Program-made: the position numbers and the translations under genes
DNA from: Escherichia phage EF1-1
Length of the DNA: 64,000 bases
Sequence record: PQ571289
Strand: one strand, 5' to 3'
Part shown: in pieces, positions 2-4,227 of the stretch
How positions within the stretch are numbered: the stretch's first letter is position 1
How the letters are laid out: the number at the start of each line of letters is the position of its first letter
Notes under the pieces: model-generated
What the model was told of the DNA's origin: nothing
Database searches by the model: none
Seen by the model: only the letters and a program-made list of their open reading frames with translations

Positions 2-295
2 TATCCCAGCAAGATAGCGGCGCTCGATCAGGCCCTGGAAAGTAAGCGCATCACCAGGACCGCTAACAACATCCCAAAAAACCTACTAGAAGCAAACCTG
101 AACCACGCTGAAAGAAAATTACCCAAAAATGCAGCCAAAGCCCACGAGGAAGACGACGAAACAACCCAAGACCAAGACTACCAAGAGATCCCGCCGATCA
201 TGTCACTTCATCCATATCCACATAAACAACCGACAGAGCAACAAAAAACCATCGCCCAAGAAAACATTCAAAATATTATTGACAACAATTTTTAA
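2..295 (+). CDS. hypothetical protein, 3' portion (gene starts upstream of window)
   Basis: Frame open from window edge to TAA 293-295; Q/E/K-rich low-complexity product; overlaps ORF-track 129..317 in another frame. Confidence 0.3.
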   Translation, partial: YPSKIAALDQALESKRITRTANNIPKNLLEANLNHAERKLPKNAAKAHEEDDETTQDQDYQEIPPIMSLHPYPHKQPTEQQKTIAQENIQNIIDNNF

Positions 296-339
296 TCTGA
301 TAAGATGTATCACATAGGGCGGCGGAATGGTCCACCGCC
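279..339 (+). promoter_or_regulatory. promoter-hairpin unit 1: TTGACA(279-284), -10-like TAAGAT(301-306), GC hairpin GGCGG...CCGCC (317-339)
   Basis: sigma70-like hexamers 16 nt apart; inverted repeat directly downstream; motif recurs 10 times. Confidence 0.6.
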
Positions 340-360
340 AAAACAAAAAAGGGTAACACA

Positions 361-723
361 ATGAGCAAGCAAATCAGTACAATCATGTTTAATCTGGTAT
401 CTTTCCGCGACGATGTGAAAAATTTACCACGTGAAACGGTCGATATTCATGTTTCAGCTTATCGCGCCCTTATTGATATGTTACCGCTAAAACGTGATCA
501 ACATGCCGCTAATATGTTGCTTAATGCTATGCTTAGAAAGATGATTCAAACGGATCTAACACTGGCGTACGAGTATCAAGGGCGCTTATATGCAACATAT
601 AGCAAGGCGGTACCTGGTTTGGGAAGTACCGAAGAGTTGCACGGCTTAAACCTGGATCAAAACACTTGGGATAACATGCGCCGCGTTATGGTGTGGGCCG
701 AAAGCGGTAAAATTTACGAATAA
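361..723 (+). CDS. hypothetical protein (120 aa)
   Basis: ORF directly downstream of promoter-hairpin unit 1. Confidence 0.6.
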   Translation: MSKQISTIMFNLVSFRDDVKNLPRETVDIHVSAYRALIDMLPLKRDQHAANMLLNAMLRKMIQTDLTLAYEYQGRLYATYSKAVPGLGSTEELHGLNLDQNTWDNMRRVMVWAESGKIYE

Positions 724-729
724 AAACGG

Positions 730-789
730 TTGACAACGTTTTAAATTCTGGTAAAGTGTATCACATAGGGCGGGAAGTGGTTTCCCGCC
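730..789 (+). promoter_or_regulatory. promoter-hairpin unit 2 (TTGACA 730-735; hairpin 768-789)
   Basis: TTGACA-N16-TAAAGT then GGCGGGA/TCCCGCC inverted repeat. Confidence 0.6.
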
Positions 790-793
790 AACA

Positions 794-1177
794 ATGAAAA
801 AGGTTATCATCATGGCTATTAATATCAATGTTTCCCCTTATGCTACCCTGGCTGACACGGCTAAAATCGAATTATCTAGCATTGAGGCGGTGCATATTAG
901 CGCCCGCCGCTGGTTTCAAAAGTCTTATGGTAATACTTATTTCTCTTTGATGGTTGACGTTGAGATCGGCGGTAAACTGATCGAGGTTGTTAACGTTCCG
1001 TTTCAATATGGCTATGGTGATCATTTTGATACCGTTGCCCTGGAAGAGTTTAGCAAGGTTGTTAATATGGAAGGTAAAGAGTTTTCGCGCGGCGCGTATC
1101 TTTCCCGTTTTTGCCGTGACAATGGGATCACTGTATACAGTCATGCAAGCGATGTTAAACGTAAAAAAGATCTATAA
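794..1177 (+). CDS. hypothetical protein (start may be ATG 812)
   Basis: ORF after unit 2; second in-frame ATG at 812 has spacing matching neighbouring genes. Confidence 0.55.
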   Translation: MKKVIIMAININVSPYATLADTAKIELSSIEAVHISARRWFQKSYGNTYFSLMVDVEIGGKLIEVVNVPFQYGYGDHFDTVALEEFSKVVNMEGKEFSRGAYLSRFCRDNGITVYSHASDVKRKKDL

Positions 1178-1183
1178 AAAGCA

Positions 1184-1245
1184 TTGACAGCACGAATAAA
1201 AAGAGTAAACTGTATTACATCAAGGCGGCGGAATGGTCCACCGCC
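1184..1245 (+). promoter_or_regulatory. promoter-hairpin unit 3 (TTGACA 1184-1189; hairpin 1224-1245)
   Basis: same architecture; hairpin sequence identical to unit 1. Confidence 0.6.
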
Positions 1246-1264
1246 TAACAAAGAGAGAAAAATC

Positions 1265-1504
1265 ATGGCTAAATCTAAAATGTACAACGGTCACAAAAAC
1301 AAAACTCATTGGAATGTAAGCCTTTGGATTAATAACGATCCAGGTTTTTATAATATGGCAAAAGAATTTATAGCCGTGAACAACAATAAAGATAACGCCG
1401 CGCGTGAAATGATGTCACTACTTAACGAAATGGGCCAAAATACTACGCCAGATGGCTATAAATTCAGCAAAACCAGTATCCGCGCCGCTATGGTAGGAAT
1501 GTAA
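1265..1504 (+). CDS. hypothetical protein (79 aa)
   Basis: internal ATG of ORF 1184..1504 preceded by AGAGAGAAAAATC leader just after hairpin. Confidence 0.55.
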   Translation: MAKSKMYNGHKNKTHWNVSLWINNDPGFYNMAKEFIAVNNNKDNAAREMMSLLNEMGQNTTPDGYKFSKTSIRAAMVGM

Positions 1505-1513
1505 TAAAAACGG

Positions 1514-1572
1514 TTGACAACGTTTTAAATTCTGGTAAAGTGTATCACATAGGGCGGGAAATGGTTTCCCGC
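1514..1572 (+). promoter_or_regulatory. promoter-hairpin unit 4 (TTGACA 1514-1519; hairpin 1552-1572)
   Basis: near-identical to unit 2. Confidence 0.6.
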
Positions 1573-1591
1573 TCAAAAAGAGAGAAAAACC

Positions 1592-1945
1592 ATGAAAGCA
1601 CAAAATGCAATTAAAGAGTACATCCTTGCCGCTATTGATTATAGCGAATATGGCATCACGGAAGAGAAAGAGAAGATCGCGGAATTGATGCGCTGTTTTA
1701 ATTCCGAATACTGGTACCCTGATAATCAAAAACGGTACGATCATAGTATTATTAAAGCAATAGCATCATGGTTACAAGGTTTGCCATCAAATATTAATAT
1801 CGCTTTCGAGTATTGGGAAGTAGATCGGTTGTTAACATCCTGGGGATACATTACAGAGAATAGCAGAGACGATAAAATCCAGCGAGAAAGGGAAAATTAT
1901 TGGCTTTATATTGCATGCGTGATCCTTGCTTGCTTTTATGAATAA
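1592..1945 (+). CDS. hypothetical protein (117 aa)
   Basis: ORF after unit 4. Confidence 0.6.
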   Translation: MKAQNAIKEYILAAIDYSEYGITEEKEKIAELMRCFNSEYWYPDNQKRYDHSIIKAIASWLQGLPSNINIAFEYWEVDRLLTSWGYITENSRDDKIQRERENYWLYIACVILACFYE

Positions 1946-1951
1946 TAAACC

Positions 1952-2788: not shown

Positions 2789-2796
2789 AAAATAGT

Positions 2797-2858
2797 TTGA
2801 CAACATTTTTTAATCTGATAAGATGTATCACATAGGGCGGCGGAATGGTCCACCGCCC
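2797..2858 (+). promoter_or_regulatory. promoter-hairpin unit 7 (TTGACA 2797-2802, TAAGAT; hairpin 2835-2858)
   Basis: near-identical to unit 1. Confidence 0.6.
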
Positions 2859-2879
2859 ACAACTGAAGAGAAACAAATC

Positions 2880-3050
2880 ATGATCCCGACTATGTTTTAT
2901 GTATCGCGCAAAGGTCACAATATTTTTTGGTCTGAAGATTTAAATGAAGCTATGACGTTTGCCCGTGATCGTGTTGCTATCGGTGGCGTTAACATCACCG
3001 TAACCGATGAAAACGGCATTGAATACTATAACGGCGACGATGAAGAGTAA
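2880..3050 (+). CDS. hypothetical protein (56 aa)
   Basis: internal ATG of ORF 2823..3050 located after hairpin with AGAGAAACAAATC leader. Confidence 0.55.
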   Translation: MIPTMFYVSRKGHNIFWSEDLNEAMTFARDRVAIGGVNITVTDENGIEYYNGDDEE

Positions 3051-3067
3051 TTAATAAGGCGGGGGAG

Positions 3068-3088
3068 TATTCCCCGCCGTCAATAAAG
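3068..3088 (+). promoter_or_regulatory. hairpin unit 8 without recognisable promoter (GGCGGGG/CCCCGCC)
   Basis: 7-bp inverted repeat with 7-nt loop in intergenic leader of next ORF. Confidence 0.4.
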
Positions 3089-3097
3089 AGGTAAATC

Positions 3098-3367
3098 ATG
3101 AAAATATCATTGGACGTTGCAATCAAGGCCATCGAATCCGGTTACATCCTGGTAAAAGATGATAAGGCTAAAATAGTGCATCATGTTAACAAGGAAACAG
3201 GCGAAAGCATGATCACATATAAAGCCGCCTACTTTCTCCAATCAGTAGCAGATCCGCGCGTACAACGCCAGGTTACGGCGGTTATTGCTAAAAAATTATG
3301 TGCTTTACAGGGTGCAAGTTTTAACGAGATCGCCCCGTGTTTTGAGTGGTCAAGCTTGAAAAAATAA
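3098..3367 (+). CDS. hypothetical protein (89 aa)
   Basis: ORF with AAAGAGG RBS. Confidence 0.6.
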   Translation: MKISLDVAIKAIESGYILVKDDKAKIVHHVNKETGESMITYKAAYFLQSVADPRVQRQVTAVIAKKLCALQGASFNEIAPCFEWSSLKK

Positions 3368-3368
3368 T

Positions 3369-3430
3369 TTGACAACAATTATAAATCGGGTAGAATGTAT
3401 TTCGTAGGGCGGGGCAATAAGGCAACGCCC
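3369..3430 (+). promoter_or_regulatory. promoter-hairpin unit 9 (TTGACA 3369-3374, TAGAAT; hairpin 3407-3430)
   Basis: same architecture, divergent hairpin sequence. Confidence 0.55.
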
Positions 3431-3448
3431 ATTAATGAGGGTAGAATC

Positions 3449-3553
3449 ATGTTAGAGAAAATTTTCACGGTTGTAATAGTGGGCCTGGCGTTATCGGTTG
3501 GAGTGGTTGCAACTATGGCTAACATGATCCTATCTTCCCACGGTATCGGTTAA
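3449..3553 (+). CDS. small hydrophobic membrane peptide (34 aa)
   Basis: GAGGGTAGAATC-ATG; hydrophobic helix; below ORF-track cutoff. Confidence 0.4.
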   Translation: MLEKIFTVVIVGLALSVGVVATMANMILSSHGIG

Positions 3554-3554
3554 G

Positions 3555-3779
3555 GTGAAACAAATGATCACGAATAAGACAGGTAAAACGGAATTTTTAC
3601 GCGGCTTGCAAATAGGTAAACCTGAGATCTGGCATTGCACTAAAAGACCACGTGACGAAATGAAAGATTTCACCGCTACTTTACAACGTGTTAAAATATC
3701 TATCACACAGAAAAAAGCCTTGTTAGTAGTAGAAAACGAGATCCCGCAAACCATTATCATTGTTGAGCGTACAGCATGA
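3555..3779 (+). CDS. hypothetical protein (74 aa)
   Basis: ORF with AAGGTG RBS. Confidence 0.5.
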   Translation: MKQMITNKTGKTEFLRGLQIGKPEIWHCTKRPRDEMKDFTATLQRVKISITQKKALLVVENEIPQTIIIVERTA

Positions 3780-4162
3780 AAACAGAAAACATTAACGAAA
3801 TGATCAACGGCTATAAAGAAGCCTTTATTTTTGCAGAAAGTGCAAGCTATTACAATGGCGACTACATCCCGGATCTGGCGGTGTTTGATCTTTCTTCTCA
3901 AGCCCTGGACCGTATCGCGGACGATGTAACCGCCTTTATTAATGCTAATCTTACCGCTATCTTTGAGGCAATGAGCAACGGCGCAACAGCCAACCAGATC
4001 GGGAATGATTTACATTTCACCCGCAACGGGCACGGCGTAGGTTTTTGGGATCGCCCTGAAATATATACCCCCAACACGGCGAACCGCCTAACCAGTGCCG
4101 CCGAGGTCATGCCTAACGTGACGGCTTACATTGGTGAAGATAATTTGATTTATATTGAATAA
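3776..4162 (+). CDS. hypothetical protein (128 aa)
   Basis: ATGA overlap with preceding ORF. Confidence 0.6.
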   Translation: MKTENINEMINGYKEAFIFAESASYYNGDYIPDLAVFDLSSQALDRIADDVTAFINANLTAIFEAMSNGATANQIGNDLHFTRNGHGVGFWDRPEIYTPNTANRLTSAAEVMPNVTAYIGEDNLIYIE

Positions 4163-4168
4163 AAAGTA

Positions 4169-4227
4169 TTGACACCGATCCCCAATATGTTATTATTTAC
4201 CACGTAGGCGGGAAATGGTTTCCCGCC
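4169..4227 (+). promoter_or_regulatory. promoter-hairpin unit 10 (TTGACA 4169-4174, TATTAT; hairpin 4207-4227)
   Basis: same architecture; hairpin matches units 2 and 4. Confidence 0.6.

Follow-up and report, generated by a model that had tools for sequence, protein, structure and literature searches.

Background

The closest described counterparts of the element reported here are the promoter-early stem-loop (PeSL) cassettes of T4-like phages (Arbiol et al. 2010, PMC2839356; Comeau et al. 2014, PMC4122927). Their stem-loop lies upstream of the promoter, inside it or just before its start, and has been shown or argued to act as a terminator or attenuator of upstream transcription (PMC2839356, PMC4122927). 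Hairpins of another kind, the 5'-terminal stem-loops of the ompA and papA leaders, stabilise the respective mRNAs of E. coli (Emory, Bouvet and Belasco 1992, cited in PMC3997798). In this work, we analysed a stretch of 64,000 nucleotides (nt) from Escherichia phage EF1-1 (sequence record PQ571289), referred to below as the window, and we describe an array of promoter-plus-hairpin cassettes at its beginning, where each cassette precedes one or more small genes. The paper on phage rV5 reported promoters across the small-gene region and called one such hairpin a terminator (t184, GGCGGCATATTTGCCGCC), and did not describe promoter-plus-hairpin units; in the accessible literature we found no description of this promoter-hairpin cassette.

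The promoter and hairpin array is confirmed as real, non-random and family-wide. In our favoured reading, to which we assign a probability of about 0.5, the region is the downstream part of a self-contained early-gene cassette array, in which the hairpin would protect and insulate the 5' end of the mRNA and the repeats would serve as recombination patches.

Structure of the promoter units

The exact hexamer TTGACA has 35 copies on the + strand of the 64 kb, and nine of them lie in the array, as the −35 elements listed in Table 1. The spacer between the −35 and −10 elements is 16 nt long in eight cassettes and 15 nt long in the cassette at 1952, and the −10 hexamers are TAAGAT (three times), TAAAGT (twice), and TAAACT, TAAAAT, TAGAAT and TATTAT (once each). 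Eight of the nine promoters are the best + strand matches of a consensus scan, agreeing with the consensus at 10-11 of 12 positions; since the scan covered spacers of 16-18 nt, the cassette at 1952 was not listed by it. A 44-nt pattern comprising the promoter and leader has five matches (0.00 expected), and the pattern TAGGGCGG has six (0.54 expected), all of them within the array. No comparable cassette was found outside the array in the rest of the window.

The intergenic unit is about 80 nt long and is composed of TTGACA, a spacer, TAnnnT, a short conserved stretch (mostly GTATCACATAG), a GC-rich inverted repeat, an A-rich spacer, a purine-rich ribosome-binding site (RBS), and ATG. Upstream stop codons lie 4-10 nt ahead of TTGACA, in A-rich sequence. 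The presumed initial transcribed sequence is conserved as (G/T)TAYYACRTAG, and the hairpin starts 8-12 nt past the −10 element in the nine promoter units of the window. The part of the leader 3' of the hairpin, which contains the RBS and ATG, is 11-28 nt long, and the leaders are 52% A. Individual units can be nearly identical: cassettes 1 (279) and 7 (2797) share 98% identity over 61 nt, while cassettes 2 and 4 (from 719 and 1503) share 94% over 79 nt.

A preliminary description of this DNA, made from its letters, had listed nine near-identical sigma70-like promoters, each with a GC-rich hairpin, and a tenth hairpin without a promoter. Hexamer counts, the consensus scan and folding confirm the former, and the latter is found at 3058-3078. 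Its statement that each cassette drives one or two small open reading frames (ORFs) describes most of the units, but cassette 9 is predicted to drive three (3449-4162). The activity of the promoters, the position of their transcription starts and the early timing of the cassettes are predicted from the sequence.

Structure of the hairpins

The hairpins of the window belong to five sequence types (A, B, C, E, and F in Table 1), rather than to the three classes proposed initially. The cassette hairpins fold at −14 to −18 kcal/mol, with z-scores of −1.8 to −5.3. The ten predicted leaders were each folded from the A six nt past the −10 element to the AUG; in every one no stable structure other than the hairpin forms, the hairpin starts 4-7 nt from the predicted 5' end, and the RBS and AUG stay open. 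We also assembled a cross-genome set of 63 promoter-linked hairpins from five genomes, representing 29 distinct sequences, and in 44 of these 63 cassettes the stem starts 10-11 nt past the −10 element (range 6-14). Because standard sigma70 geometry predicts a transcription start 6-8 nt past the −10 element, the hairpin would lie inside its own transcript, downstream of the predicted start.

Judged by sequence, the cassette hairpins are not terminators, since few T residues follow the stem (on average 1.2 in the next 9 nt), whereas the array's two true terminators carry T-runs (5-6 in the same interval). None of the ten cassette hairpins passes a terminator scan of the + strand. The two structures that do pass (2180-2200 and 4654-4676) are canonical T-run terminators, which the array holds in addition and which are unlike the cassette hairpins. 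A terminator located inside its own transcript would also abort the message of its own gene.

About ten different hairpin sequences all keep a GC-rich stem of 6-10 bp. The outer arms GGCGG...CCGCC are conserved, and the gap between them ranges from 8 to 12 nt with the inner part still complementary, which argues against a fixed binding site for a dimeric DNA-binding protein. The loops seen are UGG, UAG, AUAG, AUGG, GUA, CAC, and ACAAG, mostly of the form U(A/G)G or AU(A/G)G. Among orthologous genes whose flanks are identical, the inner helix of the hairpin differs (GGA/TCC, GAA/TTC or CA/TG), and polymorphisms within stems, read on the + strand, change G-C to G-U or A-U to G-U. The mean fold energy is −12.0 kcal/mol for native arms versus −8.8 kcal/mol for arm-swapped chimeras. 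In a loop-anchored ungapped alignment of the hairpins with 3-nt loops, 87% of the cells are paired, a value that none of 500 shuffles reached; much of the covariation in this alignment arises because one and the same GGCGGG stem is aligned one base out of register, and it was not counted as independent compensatory evolution. Hairpin alignments by MAFFT cannot hold one structure, as the stem and loop lengths differ, and the alignment from the covariance search mixes both strands of each palindrome; neither was used for the counts. Selection on the hairpin structure is plausible.

RNase E-like RNWUU motifs are weakly depleted in the leaders (19 versus 27 expected). A search with the Rfam 15 covariance models gave no match at E <= 1 in window positions 1-9000 on either strand. 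Several known elements were considered as candidates and rejected. For a lambda-type nut site, the boxA-like matches are at chance level, none of them stands beside a cassette hairpin, and the loops are UGG, UAG, AUAG, AUGG, and GUA, unlike the GNRA-like 5-nt loop of a boxB hairpin. Hairpin promoters of the N4 type, which serve a virion RNA polymerase, were rejected on the grounds that the cassettes have full sigma70 promoters and that the longest ORF of the window encodes at most 748 aa. Integron attC sites belong to promoterless cassettes and a tyrosine integrase, and neither holds in the array.

Distribution in related phages

Megablast placed the window among phAPEC8-like coliphages (Phapecoctavirus and relatives, Stephanstirmvirinae), with 247 matching phage records, of which the top one has 88% query coverage and 89% identity. 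The nearest records belong to Phapecoctavirus and Justusliebigvirus, both within the Stephanstirmvirinae. By these matches the window derives from a phAPEC8-like (Phapecoctavirus-like) myovirus, and not from a phage of the T4 type with which the preliminary description had drawn its comparison.

One cassette, used as a blastn query, was found at 612 places in 146 phage records, all of which are from Stephanstirmvirinae or Vequintavirinae, plus Cronobacter CR9. The cassette had no match in 5,426 E. coli genomes, and is therefore not host-derived. The covariance-model search of related genomes that had been proposed as a check was run with a model of the 3-nt-loop hairpins: its matches are confined to the arrays of six further loci, and it always scores higher on the + strand, by 8-12 bits over the − strand. 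The exact 22-nt cassette pattern was found in just two contigs of IMG/VR, and one relative has a decayed copy of the hairpin (locus L001, position 1970; −7.8 kcal/mol).

In the relatives Ro121c4YLVW, ESCO25, anhysbys, nieznany, and SKA64, the array occupies about 10 kb with about 30 small genes and spacers of 75-95 nt, and two non-coding stretches of 1.2-1.5 kb flank it. The best relative has about 11 kb where the window has 6 kb, and the window begins within the array, as 4-5 further units lie upstream in relatives. The gene blocks adjoining the array are tightly packed operons, which have neither cassettes nor such spacers. The cassette design is thus restricted to the array, because the adjoining genes at 6083-21100 of the window (+ strand) are tightly packed without cassettes; a long − strand block follows at 22400-58100. 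In one cassette of the relatives (L001 4358-4399, L008 5071-5112, L009 5128-5169), a 17-bp inverted repeat spans the −10 element (TATAGCGCC-TTATAAT-GGGCGCTATA). This is the classical PeSL geometry, and none of this kind is present in the window.

Recombination joints at the cassettes

Joints were mapped by blastn of window positions 1-4800 against three relatives. The homology blocks end in cassettes or no more than 25 nt away. Where two blocks adjoin, they share 12-96 nt of the window, exactly at cassettes (270-284, 808-819, 1490-1585, and 2457-2474), and relatives carry 0.2-2.7 kb of extra genes there. Such overlaps, together with the extra genes, are the trace that deletion or insertion leaves between units repeated in direct orientation, and the overlaps are stronger evidence for joints at cassettes than is the intergenic position of the joints. 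The blastn blocks are in line with the earlier idea of recombination at the cassettes, as the rearrangement joints between relatives fall in cassettes, which is the central point of the PeSL concept. On the evidence of these alignments, the cassette repeats appear to act like PeSL with respect to genome plasticity, marking the recombination joints.

Both genes and parts of cassettes have been exchanged. Genes 3098-3367 and 4251-4640 of the window are swapped for others in some or all relatives, the former being present in anhysbys and replaced in Ro121c4YLVW and ESCO25. Around a hairpin of type A in one phage, type B in two others, and type C in phi92, the promoter and flanks are the same. In the cassette at 1184, the promoter of one gene is combined with a hairpin that in relatives stands before a different gene, and with a third coding sequence. 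Promoter, hairpin and gene therefore combine freely across phages.

A chimeric hairpin, GGCGGCGGAATACTTCCCCGCC, is present in ESCO25 and anhysbys (L008 3673-3694 and L009 3049-3070) at the orthologous position of window 318-339. Its 5' half is of type A, its 3' half resembles type E (window 3058), and its flanks are unchanged. It looks like the product of a crossover or of a templated patch inside the loop.

Proposed function and alternative explanations

In the proposed mechanism, host RNA polymerase would read each near-consensus sigma70 promoter, and the hairpin is predicted to lie 3-6 nt from the 5' end of the resulting mRNA. At this position it would hinder 5'-end-dependent decay by RppH and RNase E, in keeping with the report that base-paired 5' ends slow RNase E (PMC3997798). 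It would also keep the leader from pairing with the following coding sequence, so that the unit could work with any cargo gene, and in read-through transcripts it could cap the 3' end of the upstream message. The direct repeats of 60-80 nt would provide homology patches for the deletion, insertion and exchange of small genes of the host-takeover type. The anatomy of the units, their non-randomness, their distribution across the family and the joints at cassettes are observed, and it is the RNA role of the hairpin that we infer. The most economical reading of the sequences, and the most likely one, is an RNA hairpin close to the 5' end that slows 5'-end-dependent decay and shields a standard leader from the variable cargo. 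A possible motive for such a phage to shield its own messages is suggested by gp11 of rV5, which the rV5 paper describes as probably homologous to T4 Srd, a protein that stimulates RNase E on host mRNA (PMC4980113).

Several points weigh against this reading. A scan of the small-gene region of the Vequintavirus FV3 gave roughly 22 TTGAC sites that resemble promoters, a number of them within coding sequence, and only about 5 of these have such a hairpin, so it is not essential for early expression. Promoterless hairpins occur between genes, at 3058 in the window and at several places in relatives, so its action cannot be limited to primary 5' ends. Such copies would have to act internally, perhaps as an attenuator or, once the transcript has been processed, as a 3' cap. 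A transcription start at the A six nt past the −10 element would leave 5-6 nt unpaired, which may exceed what full protection allows, as Emory et al. are said to have found in 1992 that only 2-4 unpaired 5' nt are tolerated. The fold energy is alike on both strands (−12.0 versus −11.9), and G-U pairs (12) do not clearly exceed C-A mismatches (7); as neither measure tells the strands apart, selection at the level of + strand RNA is not demonstrated. Paired changes can also arise without selection, by swaps of whole hairpins and by quasi-palindrome template switching. The earlier claim that compensatory changes show selection on structure was therefore overstated, since wobble pairs and fold energy do not tell the strands apart, part of the signal is a register shift, and whole-hairpin swaps between cassettes, in which a few types recur at many cassettes, leave few independent events. 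The intergenic location of the joints is partly expected, because only phages with intact genes survive. Searches of the literature on Phapecoctavirus, Vequintavirus and Justusliebigvirus found no transcription-start, 3'-end, half-life or RNA-seq data. Finally, the PeSL stem-loop of RB49, in which polyG/polyC tracts are frequent, cut reporter expression as strongly as rrnB T1 did.

This last result bears on an alternative that we regard as unlikely, namely that the hairpins attenuate or terminate upstream transcription in the manner of PeSL, which would make each gene depend chiefly on its own promoter for expression. The stem-loops of T4-like PeSL cassettes were published as terminators or attenuators, lacZ being the reporter lowered to the rrnB T1 level, and the authors of the rV5 paper placed t184 among terminators. 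Tandem strong promoters would run through if they were not insulated, and the −10-straddling cassette of the relatives (L001 4358-4399) has one of the commonest PeSL geometries. Yet the hairpin lies past the predicted start of its own promoter and would stop its own transcript equally, it has no U-run (the mean of 1.2 T noted above), the array has canonical terminators where they are needed, and promoterless genes directly behind such hairpins (3098-3367) need read-through. We consider it improbable that the hairpin and the leader tag CACRUAG form an operator in RNA, recognised by a phage or host RNA-binding protein that would jointly shut off, protect or antiterminate the early messages. One element on every early unit would suit this role, the conservation of the initial transcribed sequence, the outer arms and the loops exceeds the needs of pairing, and the covariance model prefers the + strand by 8-12 bits; however, such conservation can be explained by recent copying between cassettes. 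Moreover, loops and stem lengths vary (UGG, UAG, AUAG, GUA, CAC, ACAAG), the loops are not of the boxB type, boxA-like motifs match at chance level, the Rfam search found no match, and no candidate binding protein was identified.

An action of the palindromes at the level of DNA, as recombinase crossover sites, cruciforms, or operators for a repressor of early promoters, seems to us more doubtful still. Half-sites spaced 8-12 bp apart with mostly odd centres are unfit for a dimeric binder or for a crossover with a 2-bp stagger, neither role needs the inner complementarity, and promoterless copies speak against an operator. The equal stability on both strands would be accounted for, and +5 to +28 is a classical operator location. 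The chimeric hairpin of ESCO25 and anhysbys looks like an in-loop crossover, as reported for RB49 mini-circles, and a conserved serine recombinase gene is available at 14942-15619; joints, however, also lie in the promoter and leader parts, as in ordinary homologous recombination. The same junction in the loop and the same recombinase are the basis of a more elaborate proposal, which we think very improbable, that the hairpins are crossover sites of a dedicated system for gene-cassette exchange. The sites would be recognised by a phage recombinase, possibly the product of 14942-15619, and individual promoter-hairpin-gene units would leave as circles and move between phages by re-insertion, as in integrons but with a promoter of its own in each cassette. 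Equally little credence is given to the view that the hairpin has no separate function and is a passenger copied along with the promoter from cassette to cassette. It would explain why few hairpin types recur, why many FV3 promoters have no hairpin and why one relative has a decayed copy (L001 1970), but not why about ten distinct sequences keep a GC-rich stem of 6-10 bp equally far from the −10 element, or why, across two subfamilies, hairpins were replaced by other hairpins and not lost. The reading as early-gene cassettes with a protective 5'-proximal RNA hairpin is thus the one that we retain.

Features and surroundings of the array

The coordinates of the cassettes and terminators are collected in Table 1. 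The cargo proteins are small and belong to PHROG families of unknown function, except for one member of the T7 gp1.1 family and one DUF7249 protein. No PHROG family was found for the 89-aa ORF 3098-3367, which lies behind the promoterless hairpin.

Table 1. Promoter-hairpin cassettes and intrinsic terminators in the array of the EF1-1 window
Feature	Position (strand)	Components	Associated genes (promoter assignments predicted)
Cassette 1	279..360 (+)	−35 279-284, −10 301-306, hairpin 318-339 (type A, GGCGGCGGAATGGTCCACCGCC), A-rich leader	drives 361-723
Cassette 2	730..811 (+)	−35 730, −10 752-757, hairpin 769-789 (type B, GGCGGGAAGTGGTTTCCCGCC)	drives 812-1177
Cassette 3	1184..1264 (+)	−35 1184, −10 1206-1211, hairpin 1223-1246 (type A)	drives 1265-1504 (Pfam DUF7249)
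Cassette 4	1514..1591 (+)	−35 1514, −10 1536-1541, hairpin 1552-1574 (type B)	drives 1592-1945
Cassette 5	1952..2024 (+)	−35 1952, 15-nt spacer, −10 1973-1978, hairpin 1987-2006 (type C, GGGCGGCAATAGTGCCGCTC)	drives 2025-2171 (T7 gp1.1 family)
Intrinsic terminator	2180..2207 (+)	hairpin 2180-2200 and T-run	3' of gene 2025-2171, ahead of promoterless gene 2229-2414
Cassette 6	2421..2497 (+)	−35 2421, −10 2443-2448, hairpin 2461-2476 (type C)	drives 2498-2788
Cassette 7	2797..2879 (+)	−35 2797, −10 2819-2824, hairpin 2835-2858 (type A)	drives 2880-3050
Promoterless unit	3058..3097 (+)	hairpin 3058-3078 (type E, GGCGGGGGAGTATTCCCCGCC) and leader, directly past the preceding stop codon	precedes 3098-3367
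Cassette 9	3369..3448 (+)	−35 3369, −10 3391-3396, hairpin 3407-3430 (type F, interrupted stem)	drives 3449-3553, 3564-3779, 3776-4162
Cassette 10	4169..4250 (+)	−35 4169, −10 4191-4196, hairpin 4207-4227 (type B)	drives 4251-4640
Intrinsic terminator	4654..4682 (+)	hairpin 4654-4676 and T-run	closes the array; about 1.4 kb of non-coding DNA after it

The terminator between the gp1.1-family gene and gene 2229-2414 is kept in relatives with different loop sequences, and the conserved promoterless gene behind it must rely on read-through. Directly past the closing terminator, positions 4690-6080 form an A/C-rich stretch of about 1.4 kb with no ORF of at least 70 aa. It contains two palindromes that are kept in four relatives, at 5204-5238 (ATTAGCACGCTATGCCGGACACATAGCGAGCTAAT, with CG changed to GC on both arms in phi92) and at 5302-5320 (GCTTGCAATAATTGCAAGC). 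In phi92 the last gene of the array ends about 1.1 kb ahead of the annotated right direct terminal repeat, and the counterpart of window 4690-6080 sits between the array and this repeat; the stretch is therefore probably a genome-end, packaging or replication region. The terminal repeat of phi92 has no match in the window, so a genome end could not be placed there.

The serine recombinase gene at 14942-15619 (+ strand) encodes 225 aa and has a promoter at 14890. Its product matches the Pfam Resolvase N-terminal domain (5.6e-18) and the PHROG family 'DNA invertase', and 58 phage records, phAPEC8 among them, contain it with an identity of at least 99%. These are strictly lytic myoviruses, in which it has no known role. 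A cluster of 11 tRNA genes lies at 60677-62586 (+ strand), with TTGACA promoters at 60438, 61025, and 61979. On the − strand, promoter-like sites with −35 elements at 44364, 49849, and 23826 have a hairpin of unrelated sequence within about 10 nt, and at two of these three sites it is accompanied by a T-run, giving a terminator-like structure right behind the promoter.

Comparison with known systems

Like the ompA and papA leaders, the cassettes are predicted to have a stable hairpin close to the 5' end, with an open leader and an RBS behind it, and in both cases the exact sequence of the hairpin would not be required. They differ in their predicted unpaired 5' tail of 3-6 nt, which is at or beyond the reported tolerance, and in the presence of the hairpin also at internal promoterless positions; the stabiliser role is here a prediction. 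The 5' hairpin of T7 gene 10 mRNA is a further stabiliser of this kind. Intrinsic terminators likewise have GC-rich hairpins of similar size and stability, but the cassette hairpins have no U-run and stand inside the unit that they would terminate.

With regard to the array as a whole, the terminal-redundancy module of SPO1 is a host-takeover module at the end of a genome. The pre-early region of T5 is another (PMC13250531). Both share with the array many small genes, strong host-type promoters and a position next to the physical genome end, whereas the hairpin cassette is not described in those modules and the early timing of the array is predicted. PAK_P1-like Pseudomonas phages have sigma70 promoter repeats of 41 nt in a variable early region (PMC4309531). 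These are likewise conserved intergenic promoters of the host type in a lytic myovirus, but the host and the sequence are different and no hairpin is described there.

The resemblance to PeSL cassettes, which the preliminary description had pointed out, holds for the compact units, the hypervariable small-gene region and the joints at cassettes. Each kind of cassette comprises an A/T-rich stretch with the stop codon of the gene before it, a sigma70 promoter close to the consensus, a stem-loop rich in GC, and a Shine-Dalgarno sequence with the start codon. Each is also grouped in a hypervariable region whose many small genes have no known function, and it is at the units that close relatives differ by indels and replacements. 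However, the cassette of the array departs from PeSL in two features, the position of the stem-loop and the T4-like genome. The stem-loop of the array lies 10-11 nt past the −10 element, in the predicted transcript, whereas that of PeSL lies ahead of the start; and the phages with the array belong to Stephanstirmvirinae and Vequintavirinae. The stem-loops also differ in that those of PeSL are documented terminators or attenuators and those of the array have no U-run. The preliminary description had further taken PeSL stem-loops to stabilise early mRNA 5' ends, for which the PeSL papers give a terminator or attenuator role instead (PMC2839356, PMC4122927).

Mobile promoter and stem-loop cassettes that shuffle small early genes had previously been described for T4-like phages only, and the same design is now seen in a second, unrelated group of large coliphages, one that is widely used in phage-therapy collections. 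For such therapeutic phages, the cassettes provide a concrete map of the recombination sites, which matters for predicting their variable content of host-takeover and anti-defence genes. The compact natural module of promoter, 5' hairpin and leader is evidently compatible with many cargo genes, and it should be useful for testing whether 5' hairpins protect phage mRNA while host RNA decay is being manipulated. Compared with PeSL, the stem-loop has in this design been moved into the predicted transcript, which changes what a stem-loop can do.

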